Shown here piece after piece: positions 1,906-64,000 of a stretch of DNA of 64,000 nt (the first letter of the stretch is position 1; every line of letters starts with the position of its first letter). Below the pieces are notes generated by a model. The model was not told the DNA's origin. It made no database searches and saw only the letters and a program-made list of their open reading frames with translations. Both the position numbers and the translations under genes were made by a program. This DNA is from Cirrosporium novae-zelandiae (Eukaryota). The stretch spans positions 372,001-436,000 of the forward strand of contig JAPETS010000017.1 in assembly GCA_026023565.1 (NCBI GenBank), in the 5' to 3' direction.

Positions 1906-3007
1906 AGTGTAGGCGTGGGGTTAGGTTCGGGGGAGTCGGGGGGGCGGGGGGGTTATAGGGTTATAGGGGATTTGAACTGTGAGAGAGGATGGGATGGAGG
2001 GGTGGAGGGCTTGGGAATCTGAGTCTGAAGAAAATTAGGGGGAGGGGGGATAGGATACTGAGGTGGAGCAGGAGGTGGTGGAGGCGGGACAAGCTCAATT
2101 GGTCATATTCATTAAGTTAGATAGGTACAGTACATGTACATGTACTAGACAAATGGCAATATTAGCTTGACCATCCATCCATTATTCCATCCACCCACTA
2201 AATATCCATCATCATCATCATCACTATAATAACAAAACCACCCATTATCTCCTACGTATCTCCCTAACCTCTCCCCCTATACACCCATCCCCAGCTTCAG
2301 CTTTGACATATCAACTTTTCTCCCTCCCTCCCTTACTTACTTACTTGCCAATATGAACCCTTACCATCTCCAATGCTGCCACTCCTAATCCCAACTACCT
2401 GACCATATATCTATATACATACATAGCCCCCTCTTCTTTCTTCCTTCCCCAGTCAAATAAATATAACATATAATACATACCTGCTTAGTAGATAAATAGA
2501 TTAGCACAAATTCAAGAATCATTATTACCGAGACGTTTACTGACTCCTTCAAGGGCCTCTGGATGGTATTGTATTGTGTTGGATTGTAAAGGTTTAATTT
2601 GAGACCATGTCTTCTATAAACAATCTATAGCGAGAAGTCCCCTTTTGAACTAATACTAATACTAATACTAATCAAAGAAAGTTATTAGAAGATTCTCGAC
2701 TTCTTTCTTGTCTAGTTCATGTCCAGTCCAGTCCAGTGTAGTCTAGTGTGCGGTTTAACACATTTCGTGGGGGGGGGGGGAGAGAGAGATTTCGTATAGA
2801 ACTACCTAGGTACCTATTCATTGCATGCCGTCAAACGTAGGGGAATATTTTAGGGAGTGCTAGTGGAGTGGTGGAGTTGTGATAATGTCGATTCTACATG
2901 TGAATATGGATCTCTTCCTTCTGGTACAGCCATGTACTCTCCTGATCCAGATTCAGGCCTCTTTTCCGAATCCAAACAGAAATTCATCCATTCATCCATC
3001 TAGCCAG

Positions 3008-3876
3008 TCACTCCTCCATCTCCTCCACACTCGATCCCATCTCCACATCCATAGAATCCTCATCCTCATCCCCCTCCCTCTCCACCTCGATAGAATCCAC
3101 CCCACTAAAACCCTCACCATATCCCCCCTCCTTCACACCCTCCTCCGCACCCTCATTATAATCACCATTAACAAGATTTTCCGGATCGAGGATATCTTTC
3201 CATATAGTTGAATATGGAGAGGTTACTTGTAGGTCTGTGGGTTTAATGGTGACGCGACCAGATAGTTTGGCTGCGGTGTTCGCGTCTGAATTTTTTAGTA
3301 AGGGGGAAGGGGGGGGTTATGTTAGTCTTGTCCATTTAATTTGATCTGATCTGAGGGTCGTAAATGCGTAGGAATAAGGAAGGGGGTCATGGAACCAACA
3401 AACCAGACTCACACTGAAACCACGAAATCAAAAACCACTCCGCATATTCCTGCAAGGTCTGAAACGCGCCCTCCTCGCACTCGAGCTCAGGGTTTATATC
3501 CGCAATGAGTTGGCGTATGAGAGTGCTGAATTTATCCGGGAAGATTGTGAATTGTGAGGTTGTGGGGAGGATGGGGTTGTGGGTTTGGAGAAGGGCGGTT
3601 ATGGCTATGGTTTTGGCTTTTGGTGGGAGGTGAGTTATGCATGTATGTGTGCATGCGTATGTATGGGGAGGGCAGGGGGTAGATGGATGTAGATGTTATG
3701 GATATGGACGTACCGGATGGGTTTGGAGGGGTGGTGGTGGTAGTAAAGTTGTTGCTTGAGGCAATAAGCACATCGTCGTTCGTTGCAGAGGTCTGGCTTC
3801 TTCTGTCTGGCATGGTAGGATTCATGGTATCGGTGGAATTTGTATTTGCTATTTCTGCCGGAACTTGATGAGACAT
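3008..3876 (-). CDS. Divergent histone H3-like (histone-fold) protein, 210 aa, 3 exons
   Basis: Exons 3876-3714, 3604-3413, 3285-3008; GTACGT and GTGAGT donors, both phase-1 introns keep frame. TSQFTIFPDKFSTLIRQLIADINPELECEEGAFQTLQEYAEWFLISWFQYANTAAKLSGRVTIKPTDLQ aligns without gaps to the H3 histone fold. Confidence 0.75.
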
Positions 3877-6800
3877 GATATTTAGAGGATGATTGTGATT
3901 TGTTGTTGTTAGGAGAGATTGTTATGAGAGAAGAAGGGAAGGTTAGTTGTTAGGTACTGGTCTGGTGGCCTCGAAAAGTCAGCTTTCAAGGTGAGGTTGG
4001 CGTCTAAGATGAGAATGCTCATTTCTTGACTTGGGGTCGGGACGTAAAGAAGCTGAAGGTTGTTTGAATAAAGTAGAAGGTTGAAAAGCTAGTAGTACAT
4101 GCGTTGTGTTGGGATATGAATGACAATTCTGCCTCTATCCAATTTACAAAAGTCATTGTACTGTATATTCCGAGGTAGCGAGAAAATGTGGGTTTGTTTG
4201 TTTAGATGGAAGAGCAGTTTCAATACGTTTGCCATAGCTAGAAACGAAATTGAATACAATGAAAAATTCTTGATTTATCGATGCCATTTGCTGGCTGTGA
4301 GCTCACACCCATACTGTTTAGATATGGCACCAAGGAGAGTTCACCGTAAACTAACCCTCCCGTCCACATTAGCATACCTGAATGACCGCTTCAAGAAATA
4401 ATAATGAGAAATGAATGGCTAGGCTGACCAAAGAAATACCGTAGAAACCGTGAAACCGCAAAGCTATAGGAACCGCCAGTAGTAACATTATTCAAGTTCA
4501 TCTCGAGCAAGGGTCAATGGTATCTGTCATAAGGCTGAACTTTGTTAGGCCTTTACAGGGTTGAATCAGGTACTAATCTGCATCATCCCGAACACGGGAA
4601 ACCCTTTGAGCTTCCAGACAAGCACAGTAAGATCTGAGATAGTCCAAAATTGCGGAGTCGATACCAAAGTACTACCTTGAGATACTTACCATAAATATAA
4701 TCTAATATTTACAGATGCAGAGGAGCCAGGAAAAGACTATGCGGCAGACTAGTACTGTCAATACCGCGTCTTGTTAATCCTGTGCTAGGTCAATTCTTCA
4801 TTGAAGCCATTAGTATCACACAATAAGAGGTAATTAGGATATGGATCGGCTAGTCCGGGGTTAGCATCTGTTGGGGATGATGATAATTTATTTTATTGTC
4901 TGCATGTTGCTTTCGGATTATGGCGGACATATAAGAGATCTATTGGGGATGCTTTAAAAATAAAACATGGGAACGCCAGTCAGAAGTTGTAATGACTTAT
5001 TCAGGAGCTAGGGGAACACTTGATATTGATATAGTAGGATGCGACAATCAGAAGAAACTCCACTCGTGTTCATATGGAGGTTCCACATACTTGGCTGCTT
5101 GCCGACCATCACCAGTGTGGGGATGTGGTAGATGGGACGAACATATCACCTAGTTGCAGAATGAAATTGATATTTGATTTCGATACGTGATTCGGAAGGG
5201 ATAAATTTCAAACCAACTAGGAACTCGATTTGGTGGTTTGTGGCTGAACTGATTTCCATCGTCTGGTTTCAACCTTCAGTCCGATATACCTCACGGTTGA
5301 GACGAGAGCATAATCAAGTAAGCCAATGTTTCAGTTGGTGGTGCTTGAATATTTCTGATATGTCTAGAAAGCTATAGATATTAGCTAGCCTAGAATGTCC
5401 TCAAAGTAGACTTTACTAGCAATTAGTGAATATCGGGTTAACAACCGATTGGAAAGAGTCATTAGCTGAGACTATATAAAGTAGCCATATCATCATAGAT
5501 CTCGAAATGGTTCCTAGCGATGACATGTCCCCATCGGGAAGGCCATCACTACATCACATCGAAATAGCATTTAATGACCTGGACTAATGGGCAATAGAAA
5601 AAGGTATCTCGACCCAGATCGTTTGCTGGTCGTTGATTTTGATTAATGAAAGGGTACTTGTCCTTTGGGGAATTTCATCGATGTAAAGCCTTAATAACTC
5701 AGGAACTCTCCTTGAACTATAGATGTCAGTTTCTGTAAGGTTGCACATAACACAGATCAAAGCGAGGAACGGCTTTGGTAAACCCAGCTACCGACTTAAG
5801 TAACATTGGCTACTGGATGGCTGCAAAGAGCAGATGTATCTTCTGTAACTTACAACCAATAAATCTAATTCCCATCATGTTCAATTACTGCAGGGGGCCG
5901 ATACATAGCTCCAACGCGGCAGCTCGTCCCCAAATCACAAAAAGCAAGGTATTAAATAGTTCGGCGGATAATGAATGCCAAGGACAGAAAGAGAGAGCCC
6001 ATGAACAAAAGAATCAGTACCCGATCCTACTGTCGGGGCGTAGAGTGGAGGTTATCACTAAAGATGAAGACTCGGCGATAAATGTAAGAAGATGATGTCG
6101 ACGACAATTCTGATGGAGGTTCGGGACCTGATTTGTTTTGTGTGGTTGGGCCTTTTGCGGCATGAATGCAATGGGACTTCAAACTGTAGTGGTGGCCAAG
6201 TCGAACCCGAACTACGTAGACAAGGTAGGATGCGTAGGATGTAATTAATTATTACTAACAAGCGAAGGGATTCCCTCGGACTTGTATTGTATTGTTACAA
6301 CTCTGTCAGGTATCCTATATACGCAGTCTGTGCTAAAAACTACTTTATACTTTTCTGTGTCATCAGTCTAAAATTTTGAAATATCTCCGCTGATCTCCGC
6401 TAATCTCCACCTCTACAGTTACCTCCCCCCACCCCCCACTACATCTCACAACTCACAACTCCTTTTTCCTCTTACCTTTCATGGTTACAATACACTACTT
6501 ATTTCTTGCATGCGAGATCTGGGTAGTAATTATCTAGACTACACATGTATCAAATAGGTATGATCGATGGATGGATGTATCGTTTGAACCCCTCCTCTAA
6601 AAAAAATATACGTCGACTTTGTCGCCCACTATTCACTAGTCTCCCCTCCGCTTGCTTGGCATATTTCTTGTTCAGAGGTTCAGCTAAGCATTTGTAGGGG
6701 AAGAATTACCTAGAGCTTTCAGCCTGAGAGAGAATGTCTTAGTGGCTTCTCAGCCTTTAATTTAGAGCCCCCGCCAAGCTTTTCTTATCTTGATGCTTAC

Positions 6801-7303
6801 ATGACATTAACAACAGCTCCAAGATCATGTACTGTACCTACATGGAATGGGTATTATACACTATTATTTATTCTCTATCAATAATGGATTCCCTACATTG
6901 ATGAAGTTATAGAGTCGGGATAAAAAGGAGGCCAATCTTGAATCGAGGATCAAACATCATGGGGCCATGTGCTATGTACCGTCAGCCTTGAGGGATCCGA
7001 AGAACAGTGAAAAGGTAAATTCAGTTCTGACCGGAGTGGAACCAGTCTTGGCAGGAGTAATTCCATGTTGATCTCCACCAAAGTACCCGTTGTGGTTGAA
7101 CGAGGCTTGTCCCTCCTACCAATCTGAGACTACAAACTGTACGAGAATTCTCTGTGTAGGTAGAGATTAGGCAGTATGCCTGGTTCTTACATATAGCATC
7201 ATTTCCCTTGGATAACAATGCTGTGCTCTTTTTATGTTCTTGCGTGATCAGACTAACATCGACAATCCCTTCATTTCCCCAGTTTCTGGATAATTTTTTT
7301 ATA

Positions 7304-9318
7304 ATGTTCTCTATATGGTTCAACACGTTCCTTATCTCCGCTCTTCTATTCCCTGCATGGGCGGTTTCTTCAGAATTCAATGATGATGACGACCTAGCTA
7401 CATTCGTATCAGCAAGTTACCCTTTTGTATTTATTTGCTGTTGTTCCCCTACCAAGCTAACATTCCCCTGCAGCGGCCAGATTTAAGGCCCCCTATTTTC
7501 AGTGTTACCACTCATAAGCATGACATCACGCCTGGATATTGGTTCACTACTCCCTACGACAACTTATATGGAGCTCATGGAGGAGACAGATACGAGACAT
7601 GTCAAGTAGGCCCTCACATATATGATAATGACGGAAATCTCGTATGGAGCGGAGCATGTCTAGACAAAAACCGGCCTGTTGTTGATCTTAAAGTATTCTC
7701 CAAGGAGGACGGCTCATCTTTTATCTCATTTTTGCTAGCCGCCGACAACCATCAAGAGGATAAACGAGGAGTGGGATGGATCCTGGACAACACTTACACC
7801 CTCAACAAGACTGTTTACTGGCGTAAGGAGGACGAACCTGGCAATTTTAATATGCATGAATTCAATATTGTCGATGGGGGGAAATCTGCTCTAGTGATAA
7901 TTAGCGAATTCCGATCGACTGACATTTCTGCCCTTCCGCGAAAATCTGGGGAGGGTTTAATATTCAACAACGGGTTCCGGGAACTCGACGTTGAAACTGG
8001 CGATGTGAAATTCGAATGGATGGCTCTTGATCACATACCTATTACGAGGAGCAAAGCTCCTATGCCTGTCAAATTTGGCGAGAAAAATTCTGGATCCTGG
8101 GATTATATTCACATGAATTCGGTGGATAAGAATGCCAAGGGTGACTATCTTATTTCCGGTCGACACATATGTGCTATTTACAAAATATCTGCAAAAGATG
8201 GGCACATCATATGGCAACTAGGAGGCTACGGTTCTTCGTTTAAATTGGACAAATTCGATTTCTGCTTCCAGCATGATGCTCGACTGCGATATGAGAGCGA
8301 GGATGAGTCGATCGCAATAGTATCATTCCTGAACAATGCGGCCGATAAAACTGATCAAACAGAGAAGCATTCCTCGGCATTACTAGTAAAACTCAACATG
8401 ACCTCGATGGTAGCAACCCTCATAAATGAATGGGACAGGCCGGATCATGGGATAACCAGGAAACGAGGCAATGTTCAATTCCTCGATGAGAGTAACCATA
8501 CTTTTGTCTGTTGGAGTGAGAATAGCTATGTGAGTGAATACACTCCGGATGGTAAGATGGTGCTAGAAGCGCGGTTCAATTCGGATCGTTTTGGAACGTA
8601 CAGGACCTACAAGTTCAATTTCACCGGCCGTCCGACGGAGCCACCCGCCCTAAAAGCTTATACTTATGGGTCACATAGAGATACCAAAACGGTTCATTAT
8701 GTGAGCTGGAATGGAGCGACGGAGGTCGCGTCATGGAGTTTTTACGGCAAACAAGATCATGCAACATCTTCCCCATGGACCTTCATTGGTAGTACCAACA
8801 AAACAGGGTTCGAGACTCGGTTCATCGCTGATGGATACATGAGATATGTGATGGTCGAAGGTGTAGCCAAAGATGGGGAAAGATTGGGTAATTCCACAGT
8901 GGAAAGAACCACCATCCCTCCTTTATTGGTATCTTCTTCTACCCACGCTTCCAACCATATTCCTATCAAGAACAGTACCGAGAACTCTGCATCACAACCT
9001 CAATCCATGATACTTAAACTTCGGATTAGTAGTTTGATTCACGAAGTCCGGACTTGGTTGACCGCATTTGTGGTCGCTTGTGGTCTCTGTGTCCTGATAC
9101 TTTTGGCTGGATTCATTTATTACTGCTGCCTTCGACGCCGGCTGCATATGTATCAGCCATGTGAAGATGGCTACTCGTCGGTGGAGGGTCAAGAACGAGG
9201 AGAAATGGGGTCTCCCGTAGGGGACATGAAATCAAGAGAGAGCTTATATGAGAGCACGGGGCTTTTAAGCGGTGAGAATGAGGATGACCATCATCCTCAG
9301 GGAGAGGTAAAGAGTTAA
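7304..9318 (+). CDS. Arylsulfotransferase (ASST-like beta-propeller) with signal peptide and C-terminal TM anchor
   Basis: Exon 1 7304-7411, GC-AG intron 7412-7473 giving FVS|RPDLRPP; motifs MHEF, WDYIHMNSV, FQHDAR, VSWNGATEV; hydrophobic helix near the C-terminus. Confidence 0.85.
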
Positions 9319-35585: not shown

Positions 35586-38400
35586 TCATGCAGTGACAGC
35601 GCCGGCGGACCTTGAACTCCTCAAACTGCTACTGTTGTTCCTCCCATTTTTGTTCTGTCTTGCTGGTCTTGCAACAGTGTATCTGTGAAAAATTAGTATT
35701 GAAATCCCCATGGCAAGAAAATTATTAGCATACTTAGCAAACGCCCTGGCCAGGGCCTTTTTACAGCTGACTTTCTGACTTCCTACAAAAGAATCCACAG
35801 TGACAGCAATAGCGCGGTCAATATCCTGGGAGGTACAATAATCACCTAAACGCATCTTACTGAATGCTTCACTGATACGCATAATAGCCTCAAGATGTCG
35901 GACCGTGATCGGGAGAGCGCCCGTAGCGAGACTCTCTCGTCGCATATCTGCGAAGAGTCTTGCCACCTTATCTTGATCGATTTGATAGAGCTTAGGTCGG
36001 CAACGCTCTCGTGCATAGAGAATGTATTTGCGGAGTAACTCCTGTGGAATCTGTCCTTCACGCACAGCAGGCTCACCACCATTGACGGGTTGTCGGCTTG
36101 ATCCCGAGTTGTGTTCCGTTTCCATGGCATCAGCACTACCATGAGCAGTATTTGCAGAAGGATGTGCTCGTCCATGAGAGTTCACAACAAACGAAGCGAG
36201 AAGCTCATCTTCCTCTGGATCAACAGTGTCACGGACGACACAAAGAACATCAAAACGAGAAAGGATAGGCTCAGTAAGCTCAACATTTTGAGCAAAGGGG
36301 AGGGTGCCGTTGTAGCGACCACCAATAGGGTTAGCAGCTGCAACGATGGCACATCGAGCTTGCAAAGTGGTGACAATTCCAGCCTTGGAGATGGAGATGG
36401 TTTGCTGTTCCATAGCTTCGTGGATAGAAGTACGATCTTGATCGTTCATCTTATCAAATTCATCAATTAGACAAGTACCACGATCAGCAAGTACAAGTGC
36501 ACCACCTTCAAGGGTCCATTCGCTAGTGAGAGGATCTCGTCGCACTGATGCTGTAAGACCTACTGCACTAGCACCCTGGCCAGTTGCAAATACAGCACGA
36601 TGGGCGGTTTTTTCAATATATTTAAGAACTTGAGATTTAGCCGTTCCGGGATCACCAAGTAAAAGGACATTGATATCACCACGAATTGAGTGTTTTCCCT
36701 GGGCTTCTTTGCTGACACCGCCAAACAGAGACAGAGCAACCGCGGTCTTGATGTCAGTATGACCATAGATGCTAGGTGCAACGGAGTTGATGATCTTGTC
36801 AACAATTTGAGGATCATGCGAAAGGATTCGGATTTCACGCTCATCATCTTCGGTTAGACGGAAACCTGCAAGCTGATCGTGAGATTTGATGACATGATTG
36901 GCTTCAAGAATAGTAGCGAACACAGGGAAGCCGTTTTTGCTGTTCAACTGTGCGTCATAGCTGTTACGGTAGATTCCAGTAATCTCAACTTCTTCACCAG
37001 GTTTCGCAGAATCTATGAGGTCCCAAAGTAGAATCACTTCTCGATGTCGAGGAAGACGACCAGCCGGAACAGTTCCTGGGGATTCTTGTAAAGTAAGTTT
37101 TTGGTAATTTCGATATACTGTTTGCTCTGCATTTAAGGTGAAAGGACCTCTGGATTGGCAATTTTGGCAGAAAGATATCTTAACCTCAACGTTAGAATCC
37201 TGCTGGAAAGGTCCGAGAGTGACACCGCATTTGTTGCATTTGAATTTGATATATTTTAGCTGTGGGAAAACGCCGGTTCTTCGAGTAACGACTCCACTGA
37301 CTCGAACCAAGCAATTGAGATGTGTCTGTCGTAACTGACGGAGGGTATAATGAATGGGCAAATCCGAGATACGTACATGAATCTCGGAGTGGATGCGCTC
37401 GTAATCAGGGTAATGTAGGAGGACAACATCCATAGCAACTTGATCGAATATTTTTAGAATTTCACTTGGAGCATTAGCCAGAAAGTATGCCAAAATAGCC
37501 TTGGAAGCCGCAAGATGGTCATAAGAAACTTCTAGAGACTCGGCATTAACCTCTCCTAGAGTTCTCACACGTGTACCATAGACCGAACTGCCATGCTCGT
37601 CGGTATATTCGGTTAAAAATGCCTTGAACTCTCGAGCGATAGTCCTGTAAACCGATGGAAGGGCAATCCACTCGGTCAAACTCGAAGCTTTTATATCCTG
37701 CAAAGTCTCCAGAGAGAGTTCCTCTTCCATAATATCATCACCCATATCTTCATCTTCCTGATCCTCATCATAGTGATGGCGTCTTCTCCGAGGTTGTCTC
37801 GTCAAATCTAAAGCTCCATCATCATCCTCATCCTCCAGGAAAGCAGCGGGCATGCGACGTCGCCGAGCCAATTCCTGATCTCTGCGATTAAGTTGAGCTT
37901 CAAGTCGTCTTCTCTCGGCAAGATCGAGTTCATCGTATTCGCCTTCATCATCAATGTCTGCGCCTTCATAATTGCCTCTATCTTGTTTCTCGTAATCTGC
38001 CTCGAAGTTGTCGGCAAAAAGATCGATCCCATCAACATCCTCTGCCATCTCTTCCGCATCATCAATATCGCCAATTATTTCATTATCGTCAATTATTTCA
38101 TCTTCATCACCCGCTGGAAGCATAGGAGGGGACGATGGGGGCACTGATTCGGTTAGTTCGTAATCGAGATAGCACTCGAACGAAGGATATCATACGACTA
38201 GATGGCGGGGCCGCCGACGAAGAAGGGAGATCATCATCTGGTTCTCTAGAGCGTTTCCTCGGATTTGATGAACCTAATCCGCGATTCGCCGCTGACATAC
38301 TCGGGCGTAATGGTGAACTATTTAACGAGAAATGAGTTAAGGATATTAAGAGGATAACTCAAGGTAATCCCAATTAGGGGGGTAACCAAACAAACCTCAT
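35586..38400 (-). CDS. MCM2: DNA replication licensing factor Mcm2
   Basis: Acidic N-terminus, C4 zinc finger, Walker A GDPGTAKSQ, IDEFDKM, SRFD arginine finger; short 5' exons starting ATGAG|GT at 38400. Confidence 0.97.
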
Positions 38401-61132: not shown

Positions 61133-64000
61133 CTAATCCACCATGATAACATCATGATGCTCGCTGCTTCTGTCTTCACGACCATCTTCATGGTCACGGT
61201 GCTCATTTTCTTCGCCCTCTTCCACTTCATCTCCAGTGGCATCTCCCTGCTCCTGCTCCTCTCTATCTTCCCTTTCTTCAGTTTCGGCACCTCCTCCTTC
61301 CCCTCCCCTCCCATCATCGGGGTTGCTACCTTTTCCTCTGCCACTCACATTCCGTCGTCTTGAACTGGAGTACTTCAATAAATTTGGAAATTGTATTTTC
61401 GACTTAGGCATATCCTCCTGGTCCTCGGTTTCATCTTCATCGTCCTCCTGATGAGTCCCTTGCCTGTCATCGTGATCAGAAGAAGAGCTTAAATCGCTTA
61501 GGTCGCTGCTTCCACTTTCATCATCTGCGTCATCATGGACACTTCCGGGGACGTTTGGTGTGTTGGCTCCCCCAGAGGTGGCGACGATGTTAGAATGGTT
61601 GGTAGATGAAGATACGGGGATAACGACACTTTGGAGCTGTTGGGTGTGATGAGTAGGTAGAGAAGTAGAAGCTGAGGCTGCATGTTCTGTGGAAACCTTG
61701 GAGGTACTGGTAGTAGGTTGGATGGGAGGCGGTTTATTGAATACAAGTGCTTCTGCTTTCCGAATGTAAGATTTCCGGCCCATGTTAGGACGCCGCGGTT
61801 TTGCGGTTGTCTGTGGATGAGATTGACCTTCTACTAGATGGTCGGGATGGTCTGCATGCCATGCAGATGACGAAGATGGGCCACCAGAAGGATATATGAG
61901 CTGGCCACCATGCTGATCATTTTCAGTTGGGGTGTTATGACCTGAAGATTGAGCCGTCCCTCCGCCATCACGACCTTCAACCCATTGCAAGTTTCGTGCC
62001 GGAGTGAGCTCTGGGGCCTTGGTTGCGTAGAGCGTGCCAAATATGTCAATGATCAGGTCTTCGATTTGGTCGGGGGGCATGAGGTTGTTATTCAGCTTCT
62101 TAAGCTCTACAACGTCACGAAGAATGTCAAGGAGAGGATGGGACGTTGTTTGCTGGTGTGCCCAGGTCTCCAAAGCCGCAGAGTTGGTTGCAAATTCCCA
62201 CGGGTTGATGACAGAGGAAGTAAAGTAGTTCTCGCCATTGGGACGGCAATGACTTACGTACCGAAGAAGTTTGAGATTGGCATCCAGAACCTCTCGCCAG
62301 ATCTTGTCGAAATCCATAAAGTCGGTGCTTTTCTTTCGGACGCGCTTGGCAAGGGCGTCAAGACCGTTGCGATCAGTGAGCTTGTAGAGTAATTGGGTGA
62401 AAAAGAGAACGTAACGACCGGTGTAAACAAAATGACGACCTGGCCTTTCATGCTCAGGTTTCCAAACCTGGCAGGTCATGGTTTTAGTGAAAATCTGTTG
62501 CGTAAATTCATGTTTTGCACCCATTGCTGCGGTAACGTTTTGGGAGTCGTCGTAAATCACATGTGCGGCTCGAGCAATCATTCGATGGTGCCAGTTGGCC
62601 TTATCAGCGGTTCTCAAATATTTGAGTATGTTCAGCATGTAGTTCTCCCAGTTATCGTCATCCTTGCATTGTGAAACCTTTCTCGCGTAGGGGGTTGCTT
62701 GGAGGATCTCACTCCCTGCTGCGGCCGTTATCTCTCCACGGTGAACAAGCTTGTGGACGACTGAAACTAGTTTGAAATGTGGCTCAAGGATTGGATCTTG
62801 CCTACTATCGCGTTTCTTTGGGAGTGCTTCAATAGCCCCGACAAATTCATCGATAGCGTCACGATAGCTAATCCTTGGGTTGTTTTGGCGCACATCACCA
62901 TCACAACTATACATTTTCCACAAGCATTTCCCCAGCATATAATGAGCCATCCAACGCCTGGGCGTGTCAATCAATGATTTCTGAAGCAGGACACTAGCAA
63001 ACTTCCAGGCTCCATAAAGTTTCAGATTTGGAAACGGCTGCTGTTTATAAATACCACCACCAAGGTGATTGCTACAGAATCTCTTGACATCCTGAAGACT
63101 GAATGCCTCCATTGAAAATGGCTCTCTTGAAGCAGCATAAACCCGGCAACCAAAATGGTAGAAGAGATCTGACATCTCGTTGGCTTGTTCTGGAGTTGGT
63201 TCCGGCGACCTCATTATAATTGCTAGAGCCATAGTGTAACTTTTAATTGTAATGCGTTGGTTCTGTACCAAGACCCCATGCTGATAGCCATTGATCTTAT
63301 CCGCGTTCCATGTGACATCTTCATCAACCTTGGCATCAAATACCTGCCCGTAACGATACCAGGCATTCCAGTTATCTGTATCATGCTCCAGGGCATGAAA
63401 TAAATATGTGCGGGCAAGGTCAAGGTCATCTGTCAAACCGGCCATTGTCCGTTTTTGTGATTGAAATTTTATGAGATGCATCTGGCCTAGCATGTAGTAC
63501 CATCCTCTTTTAGCAATGTATGCGCTATCACCACGGACAGGCGCCGTAGAAAGCTCACCAATACCACTGAGTGCTCTGTAGAGATCGAATGGGTTGATAG
63601 GTGCTTTGAGATAAGCGTTGATAATTCTTCTGTTGAAGGAGTGGCCGCTAGGTGTTTTTGGTAGTCCTAACGCTTCTGACATTTTATCAATCGTCGTCTT
63701 CAATTCTGTCTTCAACACATCTTTCAAACTCATATTCTGTCCATTCGTTATATACTTCACGCAAACCATAACTTGTTCTATCAAATTCATGGCTGTTGGC
63801 CTGTCAAGAGCCACAGACTCACATCCATGATCTCTGATGTCTGTTGGTTGAAAGCAGATTTTAATACCATGTAGGTCAAACAATACCTGCGAAAGCGGTA
63901 GATCAGGAGGATGTCCTTCTTCGTTGGGATTTTCAATCACACGTTGATCCACGAAGCGCATGAGTTCTCCTTTGGAAACTTTGAGGAAGACTTTTTCTGC
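61133..64000 (-). CDS. HIR3: Histone transcription regulator 3 (HIR complex, Cabin1-like); 5' part lies outside the window
   Basis: ILEPHFKLVS.VHKLV, DKANWHHRM.ARAA, QQIFTKTM..QVWKPE.ERPGRHFVYT, ELKKLN; acidic C-terminus; frame open to the window edge. Confidence 0.9.
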   Translation of the reverse strand, partial: AEKVFLKVSKGELMRFVDQRVIENPNEEGHPPDLPLSQVLFDLHGIKICFQPTDIRDHGCESVALDRPTAMNLIEQVMVCVKYITNGQNMSLKDVLKTELKTTIDKMSEALGLPKTPSGHSFNRRIINAYLKAPINPFDLYRALSGIGELSTAPVRGDSAYIAKRGWYYMLGQMHLIKFQSQKRTMAGLTDDLDLARTYLFHALEHDTDNWNAWYRYGQVFDAKVDEDVTWNADKINGYQHGVLVQNQRITIKSYTMALAIIMRSPEPTPEQANEMSDLFYHFGCRVYAASREPFSMEAFSLQDVKRFCSNHLGGGIYKQQPFPNLKLYGAWKFASVLLQKSLIDTPRRWMAHYMLGKCLWKMYSCDGDVRQNNPRISYRDAIDEFVGAIEALPKKRDSRQDPILEPHFKLVSVVHKLVHRGEITAAAGSEILQATPYARKVSQCKDDDNWENYMLNILKYLRTADKANWHHRMIARAAHVIYDDSQNVTAAMGAKHEFTQQIFTKTMTCQVWKPEHERPGRHFVYTGRYVLFFTQLLYKLTDRNGLDALAKRVRKKSTDFMDFDKIWREVLDANLKLLRYVSHCRPNGENYFTSSVINPWEFATNSAALETWAHQQTTSHPLLDILRDVVELKKLNNNLMPPDQIEDLIIDIFGTLYATKAPELTPARNLQWVEGRDGGGTAQSSGHNTPTENDQHGGQLIYPSGGPSSSSAWHADHPDHLVEGQSHPQTTAKPRRPNMGRKSYIRKAEALVFNKPPPIQPTTSTSKVSTEHAASASTSLPTHHTQQLQSVVIPVSSSTNHSNIVATSGGANTPNVPGSVHDDADDESGSSDLSDLSSSSDHDDRQGTHQEDDEDETEDQEDMPKSKIQFPNLLKYSSSRRRNVSGRGKGSNPDDGRGGEGGGAETEEREDREEQEQGDATGDEVEEGEENEHRDHEDGREDRSSEHHDVIMVD

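Follow-up and report, generated by a model that had tools for sequence, protein, structure and literature searches.

An acidic-tailed, divergent histone H3 paralogue of Cirrosporium novae-zelandiae that probably acts outside the nucleosome

On the minus strand of the 64-kb stretch of Cirrosporium novae-zelandiae DNA analysed here (the window), a three-exon gene at 3876–3008 splices in frame to a product that, judged by its sequence, is an H3-derived histone-fold protein and probably a lineage-specific, non-nucleosomal H3 paralogue. Few eukaryotic proteins are as conserved as H3, and most of its known variants still build nucleosomes and depart from it either at a handful of positions or in the manner of CenH3. 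The reading to which we give the better part of our confidence is that selection maintains this paralogue, which would still pair with H4-type partners and would no longer wrap DNA; it draws on the gene structure, the homology to H3, an intron shared with H3 genes, a substitution pattern that is not neutral and gene-like codon usage. With its fold and modelled H4 interface kept, its charge inverted and its tail lysines gone, such a protein would be evidence that the scaffold of H3 can be turned to work outside the nucleosome, and it would offer a natural separation-of-function mutant, in which H4 pairing is uncoupled from DNA binding and tetramerization. The weight of the case is limited to that of a single-genome orphan from a metagenome-assembled fungus.

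The three exons, all on the minus strand, divide the protein into recognizable parts. Exon 1 (3714..3876) begins with the ATG at 3876–3874 and encodes residues 1–54 and the first base of codon 55, an N-terminal region rich in Thr, Ser, Asn and Pro and free of Lys. Intron 1 (3617..3713; 97 nt, phase 1) has the donor GTACGT, starting at 3713, and an annotated acceptor AG at 3618–3617. Exon 2 (3413..3616; residues 55–122) codes for an αN-like helix (55–66), α1, loop 1 and most of α2 of the histone fold. Intron 2 (3286..3412; 127 nt, phase 1) has the donor GTGAGT, starting at 3412, an ACTAAC branch-like site and an acceptor AG at 3287–3286; it splits codon 123 (T|AC, Tyr), whose aligned counterpart is Asp106 of H3. 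Exon 3 (3008..3285), which ends in the stop codon TGA at 3010–3008, codes for the end of α2, loop 2 (GRVTI), a short α3 (138–143) and a 69-residue acidic tail, within which lies a tandem 39-nt duplication (3020..3097, minus strand) of two 13-codon units that are 72% alike.

An initial annotation of this gene, made from the DNA letters, had placed both donors at these sites and had joined three exons in frame to a protein of 210 aa. The donors and the three exons in frame stand, and a product of 210 aa is possible through a second in-frame acceptor AG at 3606–3605, but the publicly annotated protein has 214 aa. Four splice models are in frame and lack internal stops; they differ in the start of exon 2 (3616 or 3604) and of exon 3 (3285 or 3270). 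The acceptor at 3618–3617 gives the 214-aa product (P0001, used throughout), which is letter-identical to the public record M1834_002220 ('MAG: hypothetical protein', Cirrosporium novae-zelandiae), which lies on a contig of 658,914 bases. Because the gene is already annotated as a hypothetical protein, in a record that carries a precomputed PF00125 match, it is not hidden, as it had been called. The source sequence is a metagenome-assembled genome, and the gene is known from a single genome. A literature search, in which subscription journals were thinly covered, found no description of this protein or of any acidic, lysine-poor fungal H3 paralogue.

Homology to H3 was found for the spliced protein. 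The Pfam search that had been suggested as a check returned the Histone profile PF00125 over residues 77–143, at 31.3 bits against a cut-off of 26.4 (E 2.8e-7), a margin of only 5 bits; a canonical H3 scores 155 bits. For each of the three exon translations alone, Pfam listed no histone family, and exon 2 alone reached E 0.028 at best against H3 chains. The spliced protein reached E 1.6e-6 against H3 chains, with residues 79–144 lying on H3 62–127 over 66 residues without a gap, in agreement with the gapless core alignment first proposed. Because this match runs in frame across the splice junction, it lends independent support to the gene model. At E≤1, 172 PDB sequences were matched, and the best 60 of the 172 are all H3 or named H3 variants. 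The elements of the fold follow in the H3 order (α1–L1–α2–L2–α3), and the residues kept include F67, L70, R72, D77, L82, L92, Q93, E94, E97, L100 and F104, as well as N108, A111, R116-V117-T118-I119, P121, D123 and Q125 (H3 numbering). For the spliced protein at E≤10, Pfam listed only PF00125 and one unrelated sub-threshold family, and no match to the CENP-T_C, CENP-S, TAF or CBFD_NFYB_HMF profiles, to some of which a canonical H3 does give weak matches.

Divergence from H3 is not spread evenly over the fold. Compared with the fungal-type H3 encoded by an intronless gene at metagenome locus L003, 22 of 66 fold residues are identical (33%), with 25 of 31 hydrophobic positions retained and only 2 of 10 basic ones (R72 and R116; Fisher p=0.001). 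The basic residues of H3 62–127, which we take to be largely DNA-contacting, are otherwise replaced (R63F, K64P, R69T, K79N, R83E, K115G, K121P and K122T), and the fold carries a net charge of −4, as against +2 in the L003 H3. The substitutions named in the initial annotation are all present: K79 corresponds to N96, RFQSS to ECEEG (100–104) and H113 to L130. This loss of charge in the fold argues against DNA wrapping.

The regions flanking the fold depart from H3 as well. The C-terminal tail (146–214) is 69 aa long, contains 24 Asp/Glu and has a net charge of −21, which bears out the long acidic extension reported earlier; the whole protein has 11 Lys+Arg against 38 Asp+Glu. Residues 1–76 contain 1 Lys and 2 Arg (net charge −2) and no alignable ARTK motif, and K4, K9, K27 and K36 of the H3 N-tail have no counterpart. 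The N-tail had been described as lysine-free, which holds for the 210-aa model only; in the annotated 214-aa model K56 precedes the fold, and K83 stands at the start of α1. In place of H113 the protein has L130, and the modelled α3 comprises residues 138–143 only and is followed by S145-P146; H113 and a full α3 presumably have a role in the H3–H3′ four-helix bundle. Loop 1 has the length of that of H3 and aligns without a gap, as expected from the earlier statement that it lacks an insertion.

From the single sequence, AF2 gave a poor model (pLDDT 39.7). With 24 H3 relatives aligned, mean block pLDDT was 87–94 over residues 81–140, and helices were placed at 55–66, 81–95, 103–130 and 138–143, with Pro146 following the last. 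In Foldseek, the matches shown were all nucleosome or histone-octamer entries (best E 2.9e-5; TM by target 0.57–0.76). Because the alignment given to AF2 was made of H3 sequences, both the model and these matches are partly circular. The nearest clusters in the ESM Atlas are histone clusters, at 0.88, which is below the bar of 0.9 and so no more than a lead.

Pairing with H4 was modelled for residues 55–150 of the protein and residues 20–103 of an H4 encoded by an intronless ORF of locus L003, with a complex tool that did not use our own alignments. The complex scored 0.62 against 0.02 for the best of three controls, with contact agreement of at least 89% and partner pLDDT of at least 68 in the runs, and the modelled contacts are those of the canonical handshake, joining H4 80–84 to residues 99–105 and H4 38–42 to residues 117–122. 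Of 78 solved complexes, 51 reach that mark, as do 2 of 108 mismatched pairs; in a eukaryotic set it is reached by 39 of the 65 solved pairs that have no older complex like them, and by 2 of 126 pairs of unrelated proteins. Complex modelling with H4 had been proposed as a check, and the handshake was indeed placed well above the controls; because H3–H4 complexes have already been solved, this pass shows likeness and may be memory of those structures. We infer that the protein would bind H4 in vivo in the same handshake.

An intron links the gene to H3 genes at the level of DNA. With the fungal-type H3 piece of P0037 as query, we collected 80 H3 loci from metagenome contigs. In two of them, L022 and L015, the Asp106 codon is split (G|AT) by a phase-1 intron, and the other 78 are uninterrupted there; intron 2 of the H3-like gene has the same aligned codon position and the same phase. 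This identity argues for descent from an intron-bearing H3 gene and for DNA-level duplication instead of retroposition. The two Asp106 introns are seen in fungal-type H3 genes at L015:4112–4160 and L022:3205–3275, and that of L015 is only 36 nt long. A further H3 gene, at L009, has a phase-1 intron in its G44 codon, near intron 1 of the H3-like gene, which is also in phase 1. The two sites are the same only if exon 2 starts at 3604 and an uncertain alignment of the αN helix is accepted, so the coincidence is compatible with a shared origin and no more.

In the history that we favour, an intron-bearing fungal H3 gene would first have been duplicated at the DNA level, and the copy would then have diverged to about 33% identity. 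Selection would have preserved the fold's hydrophobic core together with R-V-T-I...D in loop 2, stripped 8 of 10 basic residues from the part that aligns to H3 62–127, shortened α3 and added the 69-aa acidic tail. The product would still form an H3-type handshake dimer with H4 or an H4 variant. It would neither wrap DNA nor enter a normal (H3–H4)2 tetramer, and would thus act outside the nucleosome, perhaps as an H4-binding buffer, a chaperone-like protein or a dominant-negative protein; the role of H4 sink, decoy or destabiliser suggested in the initial annotation might be set beside these. Histone variants outside the nucleosome have a precedent in SubH2Bv (PMC3380720).

A bolder version of this history, possible but in our estimate doubtful, would make the protein an 'anti-histone', kept by selection, whose acidic tail mimics DNA and which captures H4 or the H4 variant H4E in a dimer unable to tetramerize or to bind DNA. 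If it were true, the fungus would have a built-in, histone-derived H4 chaperone, buffer or antagonist of nucleosome assembly, and the protein would represent a new functional class of core-histone variant, with its place outside the nucleosome.

The reading as a selection-maintained paralogue has to be weighed against decay, in which a duplicated H3 would have kept its open frame and splice sites by chance or recency. Several features would suit such a relic: a search of 1.84 billion representatives found no orthologue, the tree gives the protein a terminal branch of extreme length (3.76 changes per column), the Pfam score barely exceeds its cut-off and the N- and C-terminal regions are of low complexity. 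Against it, the gene has a start, a stop, canonical GT..AG sites and all three exons in frame, and it aligns without gaps over 66 H3 residues despite about 67% divergence. The loss is also specific to one class of residue (2 of 10 basic positions kept, against 25 of 31 hydrophobic ones), and the retention of fold-core residues together with the loss of DNA-contacting basic residues argues against neutral decay. In 2,000 simulations of neutral decay to the same identity, with substitutions only, no indels and uniform rates, the 66 codons stayed free of stops in 160 runs and at least 25 hydrophobic positions were retained in 80, and all three conditions imposed coincided in 1 of the 2,000.

Codon usage points the same way. 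With 11 confident ORFs of the window as the training set, the log-odds in the annotated frame were 0.14 for exon 1, 0.18 for exon 2, 0.04 for the fold portion of exon 3 and 0.41 for the tail, and in none of these four pieces did another of the six frames score as high. The mean over in-frame windows taken from known genes was 0.17 (sd 0.08), and the intergenic maximum was 0.013. Every exon is gene-like in its codon usage. Repeat-induced damage of the RIP type was considered and rejected, as the composite index is below zero in the gene (−0.65) as well as across the window as a whole (−0.5). With this evidence on both sides, we regard a decaying relic as unlikely, and the gene would presumably be expressed.

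The protein has no close relatives in the databases searched. An exhaustive phmmer search of the 1.84 billion representatives returned 39 proteins at E≤0.001, the query itself included, and 2 at E≤1e-10; the other 38 are all H3-like. Word-index protein searches with exon 2 and with the whole protein returned only the protein itself, and a metagenome scan with it gave 398 pattern matches, of which 0 were confirmed. Many of the top phmmer matches (P0002–P0016 and P0023) are gene-model artefacts in which canonical H3 copies are run together in twos or threes, sometimes along with parts of H1 or H2A, and this concatenation inflates their scores over those of single H3 proteins. Single-domain matches are 31–43% identical to the protein; for canonical H3 the figure is 35%, over 60 residues. 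A profile built from five divergent members matched 1,057 H3-like proteins among 5,392 candidates. In BLAST against 154 fetched H3-like proteins none stands out, the best reaching 57 bits.

One of these proteins, P0028 from Scytalidium lignicola (Leotiomycetes), is joined to the Cirrosporium protein in the tree with support of 91/78, a grouping flagged as a possible long-branch artefact; because two long branches meet there, the join is not evidence of orthology. P0028 is 39% identical over 82 residues (55.5 bits in BLAST, no higher than many other H3 variants), is likewise a very divergent fungal H3-like protein and shares A-N-x-A-A-K-x-x-G-R-V-T and L-I-S in α2 and loop 2, whereas it has a basic, ART-like N-tail, a loop 1 that is two residues longer and no acidic tail. 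P0028, which we keep as a lead, may be either a distant orthologue or a copy that diverged independently. The public entry for P0028 is a partial hypothetical protein of 134 aa. Among the other matches, P0024, P0041–P0046 and P0048 form a tight family of H3 variants of about 140–145 aa from ENA metagenomes, in which the C terminus L-W-[AS]-R-[ML]-[KV]-G-G-x-Y replaces L-A-R-R-I-R-G-E-R. Cirrosporium belongs to an isolated lineage within Leotiomyceta (PMC6712537), and poor sampling may in part explain why the protein is an orphan.

Set beside known systems, the protein can be compared first with canonical H3, with which it shares the order of the fold, the gapless alignment over 62–127, the phase-1 Asp106 intron of some H3 genes and the modelled handshake with H4. 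It differs from canonical H3 in its 33% identity, in the absence of the ARTK tail and its modifiable lysines, in the loss of 8 of 10 basic residues, in the change of H113 to Leu, in an α3 cut short by Pro146 and in a 69-aa tail with a net charge of −21. Another ascomycete core-histone variant with its own intron pattern and altered Lys/Arg content is H4E, a Pezizomycotina variant of H4 described in Flipphi et al. 2024 (PMC10878826). H4E is conserved subphylum-wide and derived from H4, whereas the gene here is derived from H3 and has no detected orthologue. It is conceivable that H4E is an alternative partner of the H3-like protein.

The protein could instead be the CenH3 (CENP-A, Cse4) of this fungus with an unusually diverged fold, which we consider quite improbable. 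Like CenH3, it is a fast-evolving H3 paralogue whose N-tail cannot be aligned to H3. Ser in place of Q68 and Ala in place of T107 also fit, replacements that we take to be CenH3-like traits, and some of its weak matches look CenH3-type, with 40–43% identity as against 35% for canonical H3. Unlike CenH3, it has no loop-1 insertion and aligns to H3 without gaps, its fold has lost 8 of the 10 basic residues of 62–127, and with them the DNA-contact charges, and is net negative, and it carries a 69-aa acidic C-tail and a proline after a six-residue α3, neither of which is to our knowledge a CenH3 feature. By BLAST it is equidistant from the 154 H3-like proteins. The view that it is not a typical CenH3 was upheld, as none of the CenH3-type features tested for it was found, loop 1 being gapless.

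A still less probable origin is capture by a DNA transposon, for which there is a precedent in the Pezizomycotina. In Pyrenophora tritici-repentis, the H3L gene, an extra H3-like gene that is neither H3 nor CenH3, is carried by a hAT element, is present in 26 nearly identical copies and has an H3-like tail with insertions, as described by Manning et al. 2013 (PMC3538342). A perfect 15-nt inverted repeat (TAGGTACAGTACATG and its complement, at 2122–2136 and 6826–6840) brackets the Cirrosporium gene together with a 3.4-kb ORF-poor stretch that has no recognizable coding sequence, and would suit such an event. The left arm of this repeat, however, sits inside a near-palindromic GTACATGTAC tract, no target-site duplication was found at the repeat, no transposase or hAT family matched any of the 46 ORFs of at least 45 aa at 1906–7400, and no second copy of the gene lies within the 64-kb window. 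The absence there of a target-site duplication and of a transposase remnant leaves the Pyrenophora transduplication model unsupported for this gene, and we rejected transposon capture on these two findings. The Pyrenophora copies are also described as much closer to H3 and as having a basic tail (PMC3538342); the gene here is single in its window and shows no transposon signs.

We give next to no credence to the idea that the protein belongs to another histone-fold family (CENP-T, CENP-S, TAF9 or an NF-Y/Dpb type) and resembles H3 in fold only: some H2A/H2B-like histone-fold proteins do bear acidic C-tails, and rows 8–10 of the Atlas structure search are TAF12 clusters (TM 0.34–0.35 by query), but the Pfam result at E≤10, which agrees with the earlier expectation that it is no CENP-S or TAF, the best 60 of the 172 PDB matches and the intron shared with H3 genes all stand against it.

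The window yielded no further histone. A tblastn search of the 64 kb detected no second histone or copy of the gene, and no histone was recognized in 70 ORFs of at least 110 aa beyond 9400 (E≤1e-5) or in 46 ORFs of at least 45 aa at 1906–7400, scans that could miss short genes with several introns. The stretch of about 3.5 kb upstream of the gene (3877–7390) contains no ORF longer than 131 aa, in a window that is otherwise gene-dense, and none of its scanned ORFs of at least 45 aa has a Pfam match. It is followed by an arylsulfotransferase-family gene at 7390–9318, a neighbour unrelated to the H3-like gene.

The rest of the window contains ordinary fungal housekeeping genes, among them IDO, TrpC-type, MCM2, GH31, ZIP and ETF-QO genes. 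The MCM2 gene, which encodes an MCM2_N domain, lies at 35589–38189 on the minus strand, 32 kb away from the H3-like gene. Its product is an H3–H4 chaperone, and the nearness of the two genes is probably a coincidence. An ORF of 955 codons at 61136–64000 (minus strand), with no Pfam family at E≤1e-5, runs off the end of the window. At the other end, next to the H3-like gene and likewise unrelated to it, an ORF of 443 codons at 574–1905 on the plus strand, with no Pfam match at E≤0.1, encodes a Thr/Ser/Gly-rich product with a hydrophobic N terminus, which by its composition may be a secreted or wall protein.
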